Part shown: one piece after another, positions 2,867-10,908 of the stretch
Layout of the letters: every line of letters begins with the position of its first letter
Numbering within the stretch: position 1 is the stretch's first letter
Sequence record: OR327750.1
DNA from: Escherichia phage KK4
Length of the DNA: 64,000 bases
Strand: one strand, 5' to 3'
Program-made: the position numbers and the translations under genes
The notes under the pieces: model-generated
The model's database searches: none
Told to the model about the DNA's origin: nothing
What the model saw: only the letters and a program-made list of their open reading frames with translations

Positions 2867-3109
2867 TTATTCCTTAATTCCTAATACTTGTTTAAAAGTC
2901 TCGTCGTAATCAAGACTTTGGCCTGTTTGTTCTTTATGTTTGTATATAATATCACTTACTTCTGATAGCATATTTTTATATGAACGAGTTAAAGCAGATT
3001 TAAGCACGCTGTATCTATCAGGAAATTTACCATGTTCATTATAATACGCTATTGCTAATTCACGGACTGCCTTTTCAGCAATCTCCATATATTCTTTACG
3101 CTTGGTCAT
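2867..3109 (-). CDS. hypothetical protein, 80 aa
   Basis: Minus ORF tightly packed after the next gene upstream. Confidence 0.5.
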
Positions 3110-3392
3110 TTTCTTCTCGGTTAAATCGGTGTTTGCAATGACGACATTTATAACGAAGAATACTAGTCTGCCAATGAACTAATTGTACCTGTTCAGTACC
3201 ACACTTTGGGCAGTTTGGAACATTCTTAGAAGATTGCTCACGACGACTAACCATAGCCATAATGGCATCCCATGCTGGAGGTTTAAAGTCTAAATCGTCG
3301 GTAACTAGCAGCCCTTTATCAAACCCAGCGCATGGAGTCCATTCAGGAAAATCTGAAGCTTCGGCAATATCTTCTAATAAGCGCTTTTTCAT
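3096..3392 (-). CDS. hypothetical zinc-ribbon protein, 98 aa
   Basis: CPKCG...CRHCKHRF Cys4 motif at C-terminus. Confidence 0.5.
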
Positions 3393-4318
3393 TTCAGTAC
3401 CTCAATAGCATTACGTAAACCATTTGCTTTTGCATTAAGAGCTTTTAACAATTTGGTGTGTTCGGCAATCTGGGCTTCAACTTCAACCAGTCGAGATTTG
3501 AGATATTCGCGTTCTTCACTCAGGTTATCAGCCTTTTCTGCTTTAGGTTCTTTTACAACTGGCTTATATGTATTAGGGTTCTTCAGTTTAATTAGAATGC
3601 GTGAACTGTACAGCATTGAACCATTATCTTCGGTTTCGTCATACATTTCTACTACGTCCATGATTTTTAACATCATGCGGAGTTTATAAGACAACGAACG
3701 AATAGTTTTGTTGTGCTTATTAATTTCTCTAGAGTTCATGGTGCCGAGATTACGTGAGTAATAATAAGGAACCTGGATATTAATTAATACTGATGAACCA
3801 CCTGGCTTGTGTGTTACTTCATCAGCAATAACCCAATCCTTAACATGAACTGTATTTGTACGGTCATCGCCCGTGGTAAATAGTTTACGAGCATGCTTAA
3901 AAAGCATATTCACTTGGTCATTGAATTGACAAGCGAATTTATCAGCAAATTTAGTTTCGGGAATGGTAGATAACCAATCAGCCAAATGGGTCTTTTTAAC
4001 ATCGTTAACAATAGTAAATTCAACCAAATCGGTTATAGATGTCTCAGATTTAATGAAGCTCGGCTTCATAAAGTTTTTAATGTTATCACTAGCTACAGTA
4101 GAAGATAACAGACGAGAACGTTTAAACCATTGAAGCAAATTGCCTAACGAATGAGAATAAGCGTTTTGAGTATCTTTACAGATATGATTTTCCTGGCCAA
4201 CATATTGAAGGAAATCACGAAGAATATTATTGATTACTGCCCTGTGTCCTATCTGATAATTACGATGTTTAGTAATAAGACTGTCAAAATAATCAATATA
4301 ATGTTTACGAGTTTTCAT
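3389..4318 (-). CDS. hypothetical protein, paralog family member 1 (309 aa, C-terminal coiled coil)
   Basis: ATG start; begins MKTR like member 3; heptad-rich C-terminus. Confidence 0.6.
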   Translation of the reverse strand: MKTRKHYIDYFDSLITKHRNYQIGHRAVINNILRDFLQYVGQENHICKDTQNAYSHSLGNLLQWFKRSRLLSSTVASDNIKNFMKPSFIKSETSITDLVEFTIVNDVKKTHLADWLSTIPETKFADKFACQFNDQVNMLFKHARKLFTTGDDRTNTVHVKDWVIADEVTHKPGGSSVLINIQVPYYYSRNLGTMNSREINKHNKTIRSLSYKLRMMLKIMDVVEMYDETEDNGSMLYSSRILIKLKNPNTYKPVVKEPKAEKADNLSEEREYLKSRLVEVEAQIAEHTKLLKALNAKANGLRNAIEVLK

Positions 4319-4370
4319 GTTCTTCTCACTTTGTTAATGATTTGTACTCCGAGCCATCCTTGGCTTTAAA

Positions 4371-5372
4371 TTACTTAATTAACTGTAAAGCTTGTTCAAG
4401 ACGATCCAAGCGATTAACAGATTCTTCCCAAATCCTTTTAGCCTGCTCATATTCTTTCTGTGCTTTATTAGAAATTTCTAGAACTTCTTTATAAGCTTTT
4501 TCTAGTGCAATAACTTCTGGACGAATTTCTACCGATTCAGGTGAATCATCAAGATTATCCATTAGTTCCTCAAGGGTAGTTTCTTCTTTAGGGGTATTCA
4601 CAATTTCTTCACATTTTTGTTGATAAATTTCTTTATTAGTAGGTGAGTACGCGCACTTTACTTCACGAAGACTAACTACAATTTTATATCCTTCCCAACC
4701 GCATATATTCTTAAAAGGATAAGTATGAATATTTTCTACTGTTTCCATACAAAGTAATGCGGTCTCTAACTGACGAGTTATATCGCTAGCAATTGAGAAA
4801 AATTTATTAATGTTCTTTTGATTAGCTTCTGGTGTAAAAAATTCATAATTCACAAAAATAGCTGCTTTATTTTTATCAAGCTCATATTCTTTTATGATAA
4901 TCATATCAGAAGCCCAAGGATGGATTTGACGATAATCACCATAGCATAATTTAGAAGCTGATTTTAGAATTTGCTTCTTGAAAAGTCTAAAATTACTAAT
5001 CCAACGACGAGTAAAAATATTCTCAGGGTCTTCTTTATTATTAAGATGATAAGAATTAACATCACCGAACCAACTGTATCCTACTACATCTTTAGTTCGT
5101 TTAATTTCTTTCCCAAATTTACCAAGAATATCTTGATTAACTAAATATGAAAGAAGACGAGAACCTTTAAAAGTTTCCTTAATATCATCTTTATATTCGC
5201 GACTAGAAATTTTATGAACTTCATGAATAAATTTGCTGGAAGAAACAATACTTGCATCAGTATTATTGAGCCATTGATTGATAATGGAAATAACACTATT
5301 CTGACTAAACACAGGTTTAACTTTATCATCAATAACGCTATTGAATGATTTGATATATTCGTTACGAGTCAT
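4371..5372 (-). CDS. hypothetical protein, paralog family member 2 (333 aa from ATG with GAGGAG Shine-Dalgarno)
   Basis: Shares RxW..F(R/K)KQ(I/L)..ASxL core and C-terminal coiled coil with neighbours. Confidence 0.6.
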   Translation of the reverse strand: MTRNEYIKSFNSVIDDKVKPVFSQNSVISIINQWLNNTDASIVSSSKFIHEVHKISSREYKDDIKETFKGSRLLSYLVNQDILGKFGKEIKRTKDVVGYSWFGDVNSYHLNNKEDPENIFTRRWISNFRLFKKQILKSASKLCYGDYRQIHPWASDMIIIKEYELDKNKAAIFVNYEFFTPEANQKNINKFFSIASDITRQLETALLCMETVENIHTYPFKNICGWEGYKIVVSLREVKCAYSPTNKEIYQQKCEEIVNTPKEETTLEELMDNLDDSPESVEIRPEVIALEKAYKEVLEISNKAQKEYEQAKRIWEESVNRLDRLEQALQLIK

Positions 5373-5429
5373 ATTAATCTCCTCAGTAGAAAGTAAGAAC
5401 ATTATACCACATCCTTGTGGCAAAGTAAA

Positions 5430-6449
5430 CTAGTTTAGTGCATTTAGTGCATTGTTCAGTTTAGAACGTTGCTTCGTAAGATTTTTGACTTTTTCTTGTG
5501 CTTTTTCTAGCATCTTTTCAGCTTCTAGCACTTCATTGGTCGCTTTAACGAGTTCATCATCTACTGTCTTAAGAGACTTCTCAATCGCATCCGCGTGCCA
5601 TTTTTCAACAGGTTTAAGACTCGGATTTTCAATAGGAAGAAAATTCACTTTATTAAATTTCCATGCATCTTTATTACCTGAGCTATACATCCAAAATTTA
5701 GGATCGTTTGATGAGCAATTAGATAAATTTAAGTTATCTTGCACTTCCTGCTTTTTCTCTTGCGGGACTTCGTCCTTTCTCAAAAAATCGTATTTAAATG
5801 AAACGATCATATCAAGTTCATACGTTGTTGTATGTTCCCAATTTCGCTCAAAATGAGGTAAAATCTTAGATTGAACAGCGGCAACAACATCCATATACTT
5901 AAATGCTTCTGTCAACTGTGATTTAAGGCATTCACAAATTGAAAGAGAATTTTTTGTATTAGGTTTAAAGCTAATTCGTGCAGTTCTGTTATTTTCTTTT
6001 AATGGTCTTACTTCCATCTGAAGAGTATAACCATCAAATTTCAGGTTCTTTAAGTTAATATCAGAACCTTTTAATCGACTAGCCGTCGACAAAATTTGCT
6101 TTAATTGTTTACGGAATAGAGCAATAAATCTCCATTCAATACGATAATGATTTGGATTAAAAAATCCAGATGATAAATTAACCTTACTCTGACCAACGCC
6201 TTGAACAAATAGAGGATTTTTATAATCAATAGTTTTACCGAAATCGGTGAGCTGCTCACGAGCAGTCATTTGTGTAATATACCCCGCTTTACTAAAATGA
6301 CGTAACCATTCACTGCTATTCATATATTTAAAGTGAATATCACGATTAACTTTATCAGGGTCTAAATTATTTTGGCACAAAAATGTCATAACATCACGAG
6401 TATAGCTGGCATTACGAACCATATCTTCAATTTGAGAACGAGTTTTCAT
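5430..6449 (-). CDS. hypothetical protein, paralog family member 3 (339 aa)
   Basis: ATG with AAGGAA Shine-Dalgarno; MKTR N-terminus; C-terminal coiled coil. Confidence 0.6.
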   Translation of the reverse strand: MKTRSQIEDMVRNASYTRDVMTFLCQNNLDPDKVNRDIHFKYMNSSEWLRHFSKAGYITQMTAREQLTDFGKTIDYKNPLFVQGVGQSKVNLSSGFFNPNHYRIEWRFIALFRKQLKQILSTASRLKGSDINLKNLKFDGYTLQMEVRPLKENNRTARISFKPNTKNSLSICECLKSQLTEAFKYMDVVAAVQSKILPHFERNWEHTTTYELDMIVSFKYDFLRKDEVPQEKKQEVQDNLNLSNCSSNDPKFWMYSSGNKDAWKFNKVNFLPIENPSLKPVEKWHADAIEKSLKTVDDELVKATNEVLEAEKMLEKAQEKVKNLTKQRSKLNNALNALN

Positions 6450-6457
6450 AGTGTTCC

Positions 6458-7345
6458 TTAAGATTTAAGTAAATCAACAATTTTAATTAACTTTTCACGC
6501 TCAGATTTAGCTTTACTACTCAGTCCAGATAGTCTGAAAATTTCATCATCATATTGCTGAATAGAAATATTCAGCTCTTCAATCTGCTTATTAAAATAAT
6601 CAATTTGTTCAGAATGTTTTTCGTTACTACGAACTGGTACAGGTTTTGTAGGTAATTTAGATGAACTGGATTCATCCTGGCGATAAATTAAAATACAACT
6701 TGAACCAATTGGACATTTTGCACCAGATGAATATTCTAATGTTCCAGCTTCTTTTAAAACTTCAAAAGCTAAACAGAGATGATGCCCCATATTGACATAA
6801 TCTGTAGAGCGAGCTCTGACGTAATAATCATCTCCGCGAATACTAAATTTAAAGCATTTAAGGTCTTCTGTATTATTGGTCTTAAAAATCATTTGTTTAT
6901 CTAGACCCTTAGCTAATCGAGCGCCTAATGCTAATAATCGTCGTTGATTTTCCCACAAATCCTCAATCATTTGATCGAATGATAATTTTGGCATTAGTCG
7001 ACCATAAAGGTCATATCCTTTATTATAATTACGAAGGATTTCACTCGCGTTAATACGAGACAACGCTCCAATTTTATTAAGGGCTTTCATGATGCGATTA
7101 GATAAACCCATTCCAGACCCGTTTGTTCGCTGTAAATGTTTTTCTAATCCAAATCCAATATCAACTTTAAACTTATCTAAAATTTCTGCATGAACATCTC
7201 TGTCAATAACATTTAAATTTAGTACTGGGTTAAATCTATGAAAAAATTTATCTGGCTCTCCACGACGAAGTACAGTCCATTCATTCAATTTTTTATTAAC
7301 TAAAGATTTAATTACTGCATTGACATTATTAATTACGACTGACAT
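6458..7345 (-). CDS. hypothetical protein, paralog family member 4 (295 aa from ATG; ORF-track start is TTG)
   Basis: ATG at 7345 preceded by GAGGAAAA; C-terminal coiled coil. Confidence 0.55.
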   Translation of the reverse strand: MSVVINNVNAVIKSLVNKKLNEWTVLRRGEPDKFFHRFNPVLNLNVIDRDVHAEILDKFKVDIGFGLEKHLQRTNGSGMGLSNRIMKALNKIGALSRINASEILRNYNKGYDLYGRLMPKLSFDQMIEDLWENQRRLLALGARLAKGLDKQMIFKTNNTEDLKCFKFSIRGDDYYVRARSTDYVNMGHHLCLAFEVLKEAGTLEYSSGAKCPIGSSCILIYRQDESSSSKLPTKPVPVRSNEKHSEQIDYFNKQIEELNISIQQYDDEIFRLSGLSSKAKSEREKLIKIVDLLKS

Positions 7346-7352
7346 ATTTTCC

Positions 7353-7760
7353 TCACTCAATTTCAATTTTACTAAATATACAGAATAAGATGGAACAGAC
7401 TATATAAGCACCGCATACAGATTGAACTAATACCATTCCAAAGAACCAAACAATATTATCAAACAATGTCTGTTTTACGTCGAAAGGACGTAAACTTACA
7501 GTAATATTATCACCTTTTTCTATTGAAGAATACATCTCTGGGGAAATATATTCACTAAATCTATAACCGTCTTTGAGTTCATATACGGCAATAAACGATA
7601 AACTAGACCCCTTTCCTTGTGTTCCTGTAATAGTATTAACTACAGTAACATCATAATCTTTATAATGCATATAATCATTAATTGCGTAATAACCATATGC
7701 AACTACTACACATAAACAACATATCAATAAATTCAATCTTTTAATTATCAACTGTTTCAT
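7353..7760 (-). CDS. predicted membrane protein, 135 aa (N- and C-terminal hydrophobic helices)
   Basis: Hydrophobic N-terminus LLICCLCVVVAYGYYAI and C-terminus FFGMVLVQSVCGAYIVCSILFCIF. Confidence 0.55.
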   Translation of the reverse strand: MKQLIIKRLNLLICCLCVVVAYGYYAINDYMHYKDYDVTVVNTITGTQGKGSSLSFIAVYELKDGYRFSEYISPEMYSSIEKGDNITVSLRPFDVKQTLFDNIVWFFGMVLVQSVCGAYIVCSILFCIFSKIEIE

Positions 7761-7815
7761 AATAATCTCAATTAAAAGGGCTTAGAACCATTATACCATC
7801 CTTGGTATAAAGCGG

Positions 7816-8343
7816 TTATGCGAGTACCGTCTTTAACCGTTCTTCAAACTTCCGAAGAGTATTTTGGCGTTCAGCTCTTTGCTTTTTGTAAGTTTCAATA
7901 CGCTCTGAAATGAGAGAGTATCGTTCATTTACTGATTCTTTCATAAAATCAGGAATTTCACGAGAAGCTTTAATCTCATCAAATTTATCAATAACAGCTT
8001 GCTCTTCAGCAATTAAGTTATCATACATTAAAATATCTTTCTTGATGAACTCAATATCTTCTTGAGTTACACGAGATAATTTAGATGCTTTATCCTTTTT
8101 GTACTGTTCGTTAGTATCACGAGACCAGTGTAATGTACGATTTTTATTCGTATTTTTGTAAATTTCTACAATACCAATCTCATCAATAATAACGATCCAA
8201 TTCCAGCGGGATTTGTAAATTTGTCCTCCATCAACTGTGATTTCACCTCCGATTGAGATGTCGTTAAAGAACTTGCTTTGTGCTTCAGATTTAAATTTAC
8301 CATCATTGTAATTTACCAGGTTGAAAATATCTTTAGCGTTCAT
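7816..8343 (-). CDS. hypothetical protein, 175 aa
   Basis: ATG with GGAGGA Shine-Dalgarno immediately downstream of early promoter cassette. Confidence 0.55.
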   Translation of the reverse strand: MNAKDIFNLVNYNDGKFKSEAQSKFFNDISIGGEITVDGGQIYKSRWNWIVIIDEIGIVEIYKNTNKNRTLHWSRDTNEQYKKDKASKLSRVTQEDIEFIKKDILMYDNLIAEEQAVIDKFDEIKASREIPDFMKESVNERYSLISERIETYKKQRAERQNTLRKFEERLKTVLA

Positions 8344-8372
8344 TTTGTGTTCCTCCGTAGTTGATAGTTGTA

Positions 8373-8401
8373 TAGTACCACAAAGGAACAGTCTTGTAAA
8401 C
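8373..8401 (-). promoter_or_regulatory. T4-type early promoter (-35 GTTTAC, 17-18 nt spacer, -10 TACTAT)
   Basis: Minus-strand GTTTACA...TACTATAC, ~25 nt upstream of ATG at 8343. Confidence 0.55.
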
Positions 8402-8403
8402 CA

Positions 8404-8706
8404 CTAAAAGAAACTTCTTTCACAATTTTTTCCACTGAACCACGCGCTCACCGCTTTCTTAGTCTCAGGAGCAGTGTTATCCATAAACCATTCAAAAGCA
8501 GCCTTTTTATGATTCTGGAGGGCTTCTCGGGCTTTAATCTGCTCACGGTCTATTAACACTAACATATGAGCCTTTCTTGTCACCATGGGCTTCTTATGAT
8601 TTTTTGAATACTCCCAATCATTTGTCCATCGCATCGTTGTTGCGAATTGAAGTACAGCTTCTTTAATTTTAGTTTCGTAAATTTCACGAGCCTTTGAGTA
8701 TAACAT
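8404..8706 (-). CDS. hypothetical protein, 100 aa (start moved to ATG after GGAGG)
   Basis: First ORF-track ATG lies inside the Shine-Dalgarno sequence. Confidence 0.45.
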   Translation of the reverse strand: MLYSKAREIYETKIKEAVLQFATTMRWTNDWEYSKNHKKPMVTRKAHMLVLIDREQIKAREALQNHKKAAFEWFMDNTAPETKKAVSAWFSGKNCERSFF

Positions 8707-8807
8707 CACTACCTCCATTTACCAGTTTAATTCTAGTCATCTTTTTGATGGCAGTCCATATAATCTATTTCTGAACTGCCTTTTTGTCATAGAAGTTCTC
8801 TTATGAA

Positions 8808-9776
8808 TTATTTCAGAAGAGTAACCTCAGCAATTTCTTCCCAACCGTTTTTGTCGGTCATAATAAAGTCAGCAAGATAAAGAGCAGTACGCAGTGAAAC
8901 ATTGCGTAAACGATTAACATTAACTTTCATCCATGATAATGCTTTATAAGTTTCTTCATCAGAAAGACCGCGCTTTTGCATCATGTCAGTTGAAAGAATA
9001 ACATCTTCAACCCTGACCATAATTTCTTCATTAGTGTGAACACCCAAATCCAAATAAACTGAGCGGGACACTAATGCTTGTAAGTGTGGAGCAAGTTTAG
9101 TACCACGGTCTAATTCGCGGTCAATGTCAACGTTTGTGATAAAAACAATCGTTCCTTTAAATTCAAACTCACGGTCAATGCCTTTTTCTTCTAAGTAAGA
9201 AGATGCAGTGCTCCAGCAGACTTTACGGGTCTCTCCAGTGTCCAGAGCAGCTTTCAGAAGATTAAGAATGTCCATATCAGAGAAAACATCCACATCATCA
9301 ATCAAAAGGACAGAATTCTCTTCACGATTATTCCAAAGCTGCTCATAAAGACCAATACCAGAGATTTTACCATTAATGCTTTTATATTCAATGTATCCAT
9401 TATCATTTGCTTTATTTAAAGCTTTATCTAAAGAATACGTTTTACCAATACCTGCTGCGCCAGAGATAATTAATGAACGAATATTTCCATTAATAATACC
9501 ATTCGTCATCATTCCCATAACATTAAATCTTTTATTAATGCGGGTTTTCATATCTTCATATGATTCTTTAACTTCTTCAACTTTTACACCATCATATGAA
9601 ATATCTGATTTGTAAACCCAAACACCGCGACGTTTACCGTCAATTTCAACAAAAACTTTACCATCTCCTTGTGCATCTACCGGAGCATTATCTGGGAACC
9701 ATTCGCCTAAGAGCTCAAAAGTTCCAGAGATTTCTTTACCGAAGTAGATACCCTTATTGATAGTTACAGTTTTCAT
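8808..9776 (-). CDS. P-loop (AAA-like) ATPase, 322 aa
   Basis: Walker A GAAGIGKT, Walker B LLIDDVD, TIVFITN sensor-like segment; start moved to ATG (MKTVTINKG) after GGAG because the longer ORF reads through the promoter. Confidence 0.65.
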   Translation of the reverse strand: MKTVTINKGIYFGKEISGTFELLGEWFPDNAPVDAQGDGKVFVEIDGKRRGVWVYKSDISYDGVKVEEVKESYEDMKTRINKRFNVMGMMTNGIINGNIRSLIISGAAGIGKTYSLDKALNKANDNGYIEYKSINGKISGIGLYEQLWNNREENSVLLIDDVDVFSDMDILNLLKAALDTGETRKVCWSTASSYLEEKGIDREFEFKGTIVFITNVDIDRELDRGTKLAPHLQALVSRSVYLDLGVHTNEEIMVRVEDVILSTDMMQKRGLSDEETYKALSWMKVNVNRLRNVSLRTALYLADFIMTDKNGWEEIAEVTLLK

Positions 9777-9800
9777 TTTATTCTCCAAATCCGTATCAGT

Positions 9801-9830
9801 TGATAGTTGTATAGTACCATAAAGCTTTAT
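9801..9830 (-). promoter_or_regulatory. T4-type early promoter cassette upstream of ATPase gene
   Basis: GTTTAC-N18-TACTAT; A/T-rich UP-like element; same 21-nt -10/leader segment as at 8360 and 24045. Confidence 0.55.
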
Positions 9831-9863
9831 GCTTGTAAACCGTTTTGTGAAAAAATTTTGAAA

Positions 9864-9891
9864 TAAAAAAAAAGGGAGCCCGAAGGCTCCC
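9864..9891 (-). terminator. rho-independent terminator after nucleotidyltransferase gene
   Basis: Hairpin GGGAGCC-ttcg-GGCTCCC then 9-nt U-run on minus strand. Confidence 0.7.
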
Positions 9892-9894
9892 TTA

Positions 9895-10908
9895 TCATTT
9901 ATAATAACTTCGGTGGTTTTCAAGATAAACCCTCTCAAGGAAGTCATCCCAAAAACCCATGTCTACTTTTTGCTGCATACCGTTCTTAGAAGCTTCAATG
10001 GATGCTGCTTCTACTTGATCGACCACATCTTCCAAAAACTCTTGAACAGTTTTAAATGGGTGTTTACCCAGCTTCACGTCGAGAATAAATGGAGCGTCTT
10101 GAAGTGGATAGACTAAGTCACCAGTTTTGTAAATTTCCAATAGTTGGAGTCCACCACGACAAGCATGACTCAGAGCTTTCCAGTCAATGCCCTCATTCGC
10201 TTCAGCCTTACGAGCACGTTCGCCGTATTCAGCATCTAATTTGTTCAGTGACTGCTTAAGCTCAATAAGAGAAAGTGTTGTCTGATATTTACGACCCAAC
10301 ACAGTGTAGAACGTTTGTGGACCGGTTTTCTCATGATTATGGAATACCCATTCACAGAATTCGTTCTCTGGAAGACGATGCTTAATATCTTCAACTTTAG
10401 TGCGACGCTGCTTAATGGAACCGTCTTCTTGATAATCAACCCACTGGTCAGGGATTTGATTAACTACTTTCAATACATCACGTAATGCGGCCAAACGAGA
10501 ACCCTTGACACCGTATTTAGAAGCTTGCTTGCGGACATATCCTAAATAGGATTTCATGTTAGTTGTATAAAACCGTGAACGATTGTCTTGGATAAATTTC
10601 CATACATCAGGTAAATCAGATTTAACCACTAGTTCAGGTGGAGTGTGGAGCATATCCAATGCTACAGTTTCACCATCTGCAGCTAATTTAAAGAAATACT
10701 TAAGACTGTATAGTTCATGGTCAATATCATCTTTAGTGTTTTTAGATGATGTGTTGTTCGTGTTTTTACTCATATGCTCTTTAACATTTCCGATAAGAAT
10801 ATCGCGAGCAGGAGGAACAAAGATTTCTTTAAAATCTACATCAGATTCTGGAGTAGAAGTTCCATAAAGATGACTACCAAAATAGCTTTTCATTACTGTT
10901 TTCATCAT
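9895..10908 (-). CDS. Pol-beta-superfamily nucleotidyltransferase-fold protein, 337 aa
   Basis: N-terminal FGSHLYGTSTPESDVDF fits hG[GS]x9-13DhDh; followed by minus-strand terminator. Confidence 0.55.
   Translation of the reverse strand: MMKTVMKSYFGSHLYGTSTPESDVDFKEIFVPPARDILIGNVKEHMSKNTNNTSSKNTKDDIDHELYSLKYFFKLAADGETVALDMLHTPPELVVKSDLPDVWKFIQDNRSRFYTTNMKSYLGYVRKQASKYGVKGSRLAALRDVLKVVNQIPDQWVDYQEDGSIKQRRTKVEDIKHRLPENEFCEWVFHNHEKTGPQTFYTVLGRKYQTTLSLIELKQSLNKLDAEYGERARKAEANEGIDWKALSHACRGGLQLLEIYKTGDLVYPLQDAPFILDVKLGKHPFKTVQEFLEDVVDQVEAASIEASKNGMQQKVDMGFWDDFLERVYLENHRSYYK

Follow-up and report, generated by a model that had tools for sequence, protein, structure and literature searches.

Four adjacent genes of a T4-like phage, nrdC.3 to nrdC.6, encode anciently diverged paralogs of one family with a probable role in counter-defence

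Introduction

Dsr1 is a SIR2 NADase whose TPR sensor domain is triggered by the phage major capsid protein (2026 preprint, PMC12803255). One evolved T4 clone, which carried compensatory deletions, was unable to infect ECOR17, and plasmid-expressed T4 nrdC.5, supplied in trans, restores plating of the T4 deletion clone on Dsr1-carrying cells (Srikant, Guegler and Laub, eLife 2022, PMC9391042). The same paper describes nrdC.5 as an early gene; it gives no mechanism for nrdC.5 and does not mention nrdC.3, nrdC.4 or nrdC.6. Here, we describe these four genes in a stretch of 64 000 nucleotides of Escherichia phage KK4 (sequence record OR327750.1), which is referred to below as the window. T4 is the reference phage, yet the ∼3.9 kb that hold nrdC.3–nrdC.6 are annotated as 'hypothetical' or, wrongly, as 'thioredoxin'.

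Profile comparisons, together with bridging proteins that match both the nrdC.5 and the nrdC.6 profiles, lead us to conclude that all four genes are homologous and represent anciently diverged tandem paralogs. They belong to one family that is confined to T4-like phages (Straboviridae), in which it fills a common genome slot with one to four copies. The reading that we favor, and consider probable, is that the array serves as an accessory counter-defence locus in which NrdC.5 neutralizes Dsr1. In the literature searched, we found no report of a four-way paralogy of nrdC.3–nrdC.6 or of a Straboviridae-wide family; these are the new elements, whereas the T4 open reading frames (ORFs) themselves and the function of nrdC.5 were already known.

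Organization and identity of the array

Positions 3000–7800 of the window show 100% identity to Escherichia phage GADU22 and 90–97% identity to hundreds of Tequatrovirus genomes; the window belongs to Tequatrovirus. T4 names were assigned by alignment with the annotated T4 genome and by protein comparison, such that the genes lettered A, B, C and D in our analysis are nrdC.3, nrdC.4, nrdC.5 and nrdC.6, respectively. These are four consecutive minus-strand ORFs flanked by nrdC.7 and nrdC.2/nrdC.1/nrdC. The first to be transcribed is nrdC.6 (6458–7345, 295 residues), followed by nrdC.5 (5430–6449, 339 residues), nrdC.4 (4371–5372, 333 residues from an ATG start at 5372) and nrdC.3 (3389–4318, 309 residues), with gaps of 8, 57 and 52 nucleotides between them in this order. 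The start of nrdC.2 overlaps nrdC.3 by four nucleotides. Identity to the T4 proteins is 61% for nrdC.3, 90% for nrdC.4, 92% for nrdC.5 and 95% over residues 1–258 for nrdC.6.

A first-pass annotation made from the letters of the window had described four consecutive minus-strand genes of 295–339 residues, and its bounds, lengths and quoted motifs are exactly as it gave them. MKTR is the N-terminus of both nrdC.3 and nrdC.5, the core motif reads RRWISNFRLFKKQILKSASKL in nrdC.4 and IEWRFIALFRKQLKQILSTASRL in nrdC.5, and the segments KIMDVVEMYD and KYMDVVAAVQ are found in nrdC.3 and nrdC.5, respectively. The annotation had named clear orthology to characterized T4 nrdC.x proteins as evidence against its proposal; such orthology holds in part, in that all four are named T4 genes and the function of one of them, nrdC.5, has been published.

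Homology of the four proteins

Pairwise BLASTP detects a single significant relationship, between nrdC.3 and nrdC.4 (24.6% identity over 244 residues, E = 1e-5), and gives E values of at least 0.38 for the other five pairs. Family alignments were assembled from database homologs and from orthologs of T4, VR7 (Gaprivervirus), E33 and ABTNLsp5 (Dhakavirus) and JK45, and were compared as profiles with hhalign; the decoys were column-reversed alignments, which keep both composition and periodicity. Core comparisons gave P = 1e-13 for nrdC.3–nrdC.4, 9e-5 for nrdC.4–nrdC.5, 0.003 for nrdC.5–nrdC.6, 0.007 for nrdC.3–nrdC.5 (154 collinear columns), 0.08 for nrdC.4–nrdC.6 and 0.29 for nrdC.3–nrdC.6, with reversed decoys at 0.2–0.8. 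The tails of nrdC.3 and nrdC.5 match at P = 3e-13 (decoy 0.02). The aligned registers agree mutually between pairs.

An exhaustive hidden Markov model (HMM) search with the nrdC.6 profile matched only 14 proteins among 1.8 billion representatives and returned no bacterial homologs, marking the family as narrow. A scan of viral contigs with nrdC.5 yielded only five close relatives and brought no gain for profile building. Among the 14 proteins, P0233, P0235 and P0236 are distant full-length intermediates from uncultured T4-like phages. P0235 matches the nrdC.6 profile at 2e-9, that of nrdC.5 at 4e-9 (247 columns) and that of nrdC.4 at 3e-4; the corresponding values for P0236 are 8e-12, 3e-7 and 1e-3, and P0233 matches nrdC.6 at 7e-13 and nrdC.5 at 1e-4, its nrdC.4 comparison not being significant. 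Reversed decoys in these comparisons scored 0.025 or higher. The bridging proteins align with 244–247 columns of nrdC.5 and 159–199 columns of nrdC.6, the core included. P0235 reaches the gathering score of DUF7235, the Pfam family of nrdC.5 (30.2 bits, E = 4e-7), and the core of P0236 is matched by this family at E = 1e-4; the precomputed Pfam assignment of P0233 and P0236 is PF26899, the family of nrdC.6. A four-sequence bridge profile (P0233, P0235, P0236 and Merlin91) matches nrdC.5 at 3e-10, nrdC.6 at 4e-12 and nrdC.4 at 3e-4. The paralogy that the first-pass annotation had proposed is thus borne out more strongly than letters alone could show: the pairwise alignment that it recommended recovers nrdC.3–nrdC.4 and fails for the other five pairs, and profiles and bridging sequences connect all four.

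A superfamily alignment of 18 sequences (A3) contains five collinear motif blocks that are common to the family. Block 1 has the pattern F-(K/N)-x-S-x-(L/Y)-(L/F)-S ... A ... L ... F-G-K, block 2 is (F/W) ... (R/N) ... L-L-A-x-(A/G)-(S/A)-(R/K)-L-x-x-G, block 3 is D-x-R-x-(M/I)-x-(F/W)-K, block 4 is L-x-x-A-L-x-x-M-(D) ... V-E and block 5, located in the tail, is ... (Q/E)-R-x-K-L-x-x-A-(I/L)-x-x-L-K.

No further family member was found elsewhere in the 64 kb window. The C-terminus of nrdC.8 appears tail-like by eye and proved to be unrelated (P ≥ 0.06). Neighboring ORFs at other loci, namely those of 259 residues in L013 and 256 residues in L014 and Merlin92, are likewise not family members.

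Family assignments in Pfam and PHROGs

Pfam and PHROGs each file the array genes in three separate families. nrdC.5 matches DUF7235 (PF23882) over its full length with 410.6 bits (E = 6e-123; gathering score 30 bits) and is assigned to phrog_2351; DUF7235 likewise matches two distant orthologs, VR7 nrdC.5 and JK45 gp093, over their full length. In the Pfam scan, nrdC.3, nrdC.4 and nrdC.6 do not reach the DUF7235 threshold and have no DUF7235 match at E ≤ 1; judged from profiles and bridging sequences, their relationship to DUF7235 is at the superfamily level only. nrdC.6 is matched by phrog_2257 (E = 3e-151) and has no Pfam match itself in the release scanned, which predates PF26899 (Phage_T4_Y05B); this family is carried by all of the nrdC.6 homologs (105/105). 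The only two genes that PHROGs joins are nrdC.4 (E = 5e-165) and nrdC.3 (E = 2e-115), both in phrog_1435, and homologs of nrdC.4 carry PF26897. NCBIfam gave no meaningful matches for the four genes. Our results support joining DUF7235, PF26897 and PF26899 in one clan.

A weak resemblance to tyrosine recombinases, in their SAM-like N-terminal core-binding domain, was returned for residues 30–86 of nrdC.3 (window 4061–4231) by Pfam (E = 0.085) and by NCBIfam (E = 0.0015); neither match comes near the cut-offs. This segment may be a helical nucleic-acid-binding subdomain, or the matches may be due to chance.

Domain architecture and C-terminal tails

In each of the four proteins, a disordered linker connects an N-terminal α/β domain (∼220–275 residues) to an amphipathic heptad helix at the C-terminus (∼45–60 residues), with the same order of secondary-structure elements in the family members. 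The AlphaFold2 (AF2) model of nrdC.6 has a predicted local distance difference test (pLDDT) score of 78.8 and a predicted template-modeling (pTM) score of 0.66. It comprises seven N-terminal helices, a β-hairpin, a helix, a second hairpin, a disordered linker (residues 226–241, pLDDT < 50) and two C-terminal helices (residues 242–271 and 277–294). Motif block 1 falls on a helix-turn-helix-like pair in this model (helices 81–91 and 94–106). The AF2 model of nrdC.5, obtained with a family-only alignment, is unusable overall (pLDDT 43). It predicts a long helix at residues 280–338, the first ten residues of which have a mean pLDDT of 59; residues 291–339 form the only blocks of the model with a mean pLDDT of 70 or more (74–93). 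The independently predicted secondary structures of nrdC.5 and nrdC.6 agree at 73% of the A3-aligned columns and at 69% of those in the core. Circular-shift controls average 42–44% and do not exceed 58%; for the 73% figure they average 44% and reach 56% at most.

Heptad-rich tails had also been noted in the first-pass annotation, and heptad periodicity over the last 42 residues is significant in all four proteins when compared with shuffles of the same tail, with p = 0.02 for nrdC.3 (3392–3517), 0.0045 for nrdC.4 (4374–4499), 0.0005 for nrdC.5 and 0.001 for nrdC.6. All four tails keep one common register relative to a terminal LK. Heptad periodicity within a predicted long helix, as expected of a coiled coil, is found for the nrdC.5 helix (residues 280–339, 5433–5612), with a tail profile similar to that of nrdC.3, and for the nrdC.6 helix pair (residues 242–295, 6461–6622), the helices being taken from the two AF2 models. 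In three of the four families the tail is better conserved than the core: identity to distant orthologs is 58–71% versus 32–40% for nrdC.6 and 62–64% versus 42–49% for nrdC.4, and identity to other alleles of nrdC.3 is 76–87% versus 58–80%.

No solved structural relative was identified, either by sequence search of the PDB or by a Foldseek search of the PDB with the nrdC.6 model at E ≤ 1e-3. Foldseek comparison of the same model with predicted viral structures (BFVD) retrieved full-length proteins of 300–335 residues at E values of 3e-7 to 3e-3 and 11–16% identity. These proteins belong to Enterobacter phage IME523, Pectobacterium phage PM2, Yersinia phage fHe-Yen9-01, Citrobacter phage Merlin and the Acinetobacter phages fHyAci03, Acj9 and Acj61, and include Karamvirus and Moonvirus proteins. 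The structural comparison proposed at first pass, made here with the nrdC.6 model, thus has viral relatives and no PDB relative as its outcome.

Distribution and copy number

A check of copy number across T4-like genomes, which had also been proposed at first pass, shows that the nrdC slot holds one to four family members. Tequatrovirus (the window and T4) has four copies; Gaprivervirus and Dhakavirus have three, lacking nrdC.3; JK45 has three, lacking nrdC.4; Merlin (Merlin91) and the metagenomic loci L013 and L014 have one each. Acj61 p120/p121, a tandem pair located just downstream of nrdC, are putative members on Foldseek similarity and synteny only and, compared as single sequences, did not match the four profiles significantly; p118, p068, p079 and p076 of the same phage were rejected as members. 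Since nrdC.4, nrdC.5 and nrdC.6 have orthologs in Gaprivervirus and Dhakavirus, the splits between these three predate both genera, and the four-fold duplication noted in the first-pass annotation is not a recent one. Among 741 phage records with nrdC.8, tblastn found nrdC.6 in 741, nrdC.3 in 653, nrdC.5 in 583 and nrdC.4 in 553.

In Gaprivervirus and Dhakavirus, an additional small ORF (67–71 residues) lies between nrdC.6 and nrdC.5 (L008, 6733–6948; L009, 6724–6939; L010, 5855–6058); it is absent from Tequatrovirus, where the gap between these genes is the 8 nucleotides given above. At a distance of ∼30 kb from its nrdC-slot pair, Acj61 (L012, 1229–3938) has adjacent genes for nicotinamide phosphoribosyltransferase and ribose-phosphate pyrophosphokinase. 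As annotated, these two genes fit counter-defence by NAD+ reconstitution, a strategy that would be effective against SIR2 NADases as well.

Evolutionary rates, alleles and rearrangements

The gene-wide ratio of nonsynonymous to synonymous substitution rates (dN/dS; Nei–Gojobori method, five Tequatrovirus comparisons) is 0.14–0.30 for nrdC.3, nrdC.4 and nrdC.5, 0.08–0.15 for nrdC.6 and mostly ≤0.1 for the flanking genes. Constraint is relaxed and there is no gene-wide positive selection; the diversifying selection that had been suggested from the tandem arrangement is not shown by values (0.08–0.30) that lie far below 1. Between genera, the four proteins have 23–52% identity, compared with 67–91% for gp49, nrdC, nrdC.1, nrdC.8, nrdC.10 and nrdC.11; nrdC.2 and nrdC.9 are also divergent (35–62%).

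Three allele classes of nrdC.3 are present among the phage records. The segment comprising nrdC.2 and nrdC.3 (window 3096–4318) occurs as deeply divergent classes with about 60% and about 78% amino-acid identity and a synonymous divergence (dS) greater than 1, set within Tequatrovirus genomes with ∼95%-identical flanks; T4 carries the 60% class. This pattern looks like cassette-like mosaic replacement by recombination.

The array is also frequently rearranged in natural phages. ACG-C40 (L015, 4805–5244) has an out-of-frame nrdC.5(1–67)::nrdC.3 deletion that leaves nrdC.6 alone intact. In Salmonella phage Manna, nrdC.5 and most of nrdC.4 are deleted, and Manna_094 (L016, 4215–5252; 345 residues) is an in-frame nrdC.6(1–269)::nrdC.4(258–333) hybrid that consists of an nrdC.6 body with the linker and tail of nrdC.4, joined within an imperfect microhomology of ∼21 nucleotides (QQYDDEI/QQKCEEI). 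P0056, from a 167 kb contig, is an nrdC.5::nrdC.3 fusion. Unequal crossing-over at homologous positions was considered for the Manna and P0056 fusions and rejected, as their junctions are short microhomologies at non-equivalent positions. The nrdC.6 protein of Shigella phage Sf25 (P0121, 378 residues) contains an internal tandem duplication of 83 residues (176–258).

The T4 reference sequence (NC_000866; L001, 10067–10894) has a one-nucleotide deletion corresponding to window position ∼6571, at codon 259 of nrdC.6 (gagctgAatatt to gagctg-atatt). The resulting frameshift yields a protein of 275 residues that has lost the C-terminal heptad helix, with the downstream DNA still encoding the tail. 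Either the deletion arose as a mutation in a laboratory strain or the sequence is in error at this point.

Proposed function and alternatives

From its 92% identity to the tested T4 protein, we infer that nrdC.5 of the window has anti-Dsr1 activity. The counter-defence role that the first-pass annotation had guessed for the array is thus right for at least one member, nrdC.5, the T4 ortholog of which counteracts Dsr1 (PMC9391042), and we infer it for nrdC.3, nrdC.4 and nrdC.6. In the mechanism that we propose, NrdC.5 would be made early in infection and would bind directly to Dsr1, the contact being with either the TPR sensor or the NADase domain, a proposal drawn from the analogy with DSAD1 and DSR2 (see below). 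Binding would precede accumulation of the late trigger, the major capsid protein, so that NAD+ depletion would be prevented. Target specificity would reside in the fast-evolving N-terminal domain and oligomerization in the conserved C-terminal helix, and the three other paralogs may present the same scaffold to other defence proteins or to other variants of Dsr1.

Several observations weigh against this reading of the array. The published experiments on function cover nrdC.5 and not the other three genes, and the nrdC.5 result is genetic only (PMC9391042). The direct profile scores of nrdC.6 are weak (0.003 with nrdC.5 and 0.08 with nrdC.4) or null (0.29 with nrdC.3), so what ties it to the others is the bridging sequences together with agreement in structure and architecture; no recognizable T4 nrdC.3, nrdC.4 or nrdC.5 entry is present in the top 50 BFVD matches of the nrdC.6 model. 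Given the poor AF2 model of nrdC.5 (pLDDT 43), a shared three-dimensional fold of nrdC.3, nrdC.4 and nrdC.5 is putative. The dN/dS of all four genes is well below 1, and nrdC.6 evolves more slowly and has been kept by all of the related genomes examined, which could indicate a more housekeeping role than that of a strain-specific inhibitor.

This last point leads to an alternative that has a limited, though real, chance of being correct: that the genes are paralogs of which only NrdC.5 acts in counter-defence, the others having unrelated early functions such as binding of host or phage nucleic acid or regulation of host takeover. That nrdC.6 is present in 741/741 related records and has the lowest dN/dS in the array is in keeping with a role less tied to particular strains, and the helix-turn-helix-like pair in block 1 of the nrdC.6 model (81–91, 94–106) and the weak recombinase-domain matches of nrdC.3 (30–86) would suit nucleic-acid binding. 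On the other hand, the genes are naturally dispensable, three being missing from ACG-C40 and two from Manna, and all four evolve much faster than nrdC, nrdC.8 and nrdC.11, as is typical of host-interaction genes. We consider it improbable that the four proteins are instead subunits of a single machine, a hetero-oligomeric complex assembled through the C-terminal helices. A heptad register and a terminal motif common to all four tails, the near interchangeability of the nrdC.3 and nrdC.5 tails at the profile level (3e-13) and a tail that in three of the families is conserved better than any other segment would be expected of such a complex; yet nrdC.5 alone, on a plasmid, rescued the T4 deletion clone on Dsr1 cells, viable natural phages have one, two or three members in varying combinations, and the census counts of the paralogs are unequal.

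That homology does not extend to all four proteins, with nrdC.6 (and perhaps nrdC.5) resembling the others through convergence from coiled-coil composition and chance motifs in AT-rich early genes, is extremely improbable and is already largely refuted here. Such a view could draw on the nonsignificant BLASTP result for five of the six pairs, on the direct nrdC.3–nrdC.6 and nrdC.4–nrdC.6 profile comparisons, which are not significant, and on the three separate families in Pfam and PHROGs. It is opposed by the tail-free core comparisons, which are significant for nrdC.4–nrdC.5 (9e-5) and suggestive for nrdC.5–nrdC.6 (0.003) with reversed decoys of the same composition at 0.2 or above, by bridging proteins that align to the nrdC.5 and nrdC.6 profiles with the core included, by consistent alignment registers across pairs, by agreement in secondary-structure order well above the shift controls and by a genome position that is conserved across subfamilies.

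We retain as probable the reading of the array as homologous accessory counter-defence genes. An extension of it, speculative and of low likelihood, is that nrdC.3–nrdC.6 form a modular anti-sensor toolkit on an undescribed fold, in which each fast-evolving N-terminal domain would block a different member of a large family of capsid-sensing TPR receptors (Dsr1, Avs7 and relatives with other effectors), the conserved heptad helix would allow the paralogs to oligomerize and recombine into new specificities (compare the nrdC.6::nrdC.4 hybrid of Manna) and paralogous phage inhibitors would mirror paralogous bacterial sensors. The analysis turns three unannotated ORFs into concrete, testable counter-defence candidates that share a family with the only known anti-Dsr1 factor, and the layout of a variable N-terminal domain followed by a conserved heptad tail can guide truncations, chimeras and binding assays on Dsr1 inhibition.

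Neighboring genes and other features

In GADU22 and many other records, nrdC.1 to nrdC.10 (window 2867–9948) are labeled 'thioredoxin' and nrdC.7 is labeled 'Mur ligase domain-containing protein'. A Pfam scan of the four paralogs and of nrdC.1, nrdC.2, nrdC.7 and nrdC.8 found neither a thioredoxin nor a Mur-ligase match at E ≤ 1; as far as sequence comparison can tell, the 'thioredoxin' labels have been propagated from the locus name without any similarity. nrdC.2 (3096–3392, 98 residues) has two CxxC pairs (CPKC ... CRHC) in its C-terminal half and many weak zinc-ribbon matches in Pfam (best E = 1.7e-4), and is probably a small zinc-ribbon protein that is co-variable with nrdC.3.

The gap between nrdC.5 and nrdC.4 contains a minus-strand match to a σ70-like promoter (5401–5429; TTTACT, a 17-nucleotide spacer and a TG-extended TATAAT), which agrees with 10 of 12 consensus positions and overlaps a small hairpin. 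It is the second listed of the matches in the region and one of three that score 10/12, and the region has as many σ70-like sites as are expected from shuffles. The site may be an internal early promoter and is put forward as a lead only.

Comparison with known systems

The closest described protein is T4 NrdC.5 (DUF7235/PF23882), to which nrdC.5 of the window is the direct ortholog (92% identity, same position, 410 bits in Pfam). The other three proteins of the window are remote homologs of T4 NrdC.5 with the same architecture; unlike it, they fall below the DUF7235 threshold and are filed under PF26897, PF26899, phrog_1435 and phrog_2257.

DSAD1 is an SPβ-phage inhibitor of DSR2, and its structures have been reported (PMC10973363, PMC10981675, PMC11087589). 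Like NrdC.5, it is a phage protein that acts against a defence-associated sirtuin whose sensor recognizes a late structural protein. It differs in its target, DSR2 rather than Dsr1, and in its phage lineage, and no relationship in sequence or fold is claimed; neither a tandem paralog array nor a C-terminal heptad tail has been reported for DSAD1.

Within T4, the 'anti-TA island' of dmd, tifA and adfA and the internal proteins IPI–IPIII resemble the array in being non-essential, fast-diverging and variably present genes directed against strain-specific defences. The internal proteins are known to have only a short capsid-targeting signal in common. Accessory counter-defence genes of T4 are lost through microhomology-mediated deletions, and no homology is described between dmd, tifA and adfA, which are presented as genes in their own right (PMC9391042). 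Unlike either group, nrdC.3–nrdC.6 encode full-length paralogs of ∼300 residues with one putative fold and one tail.

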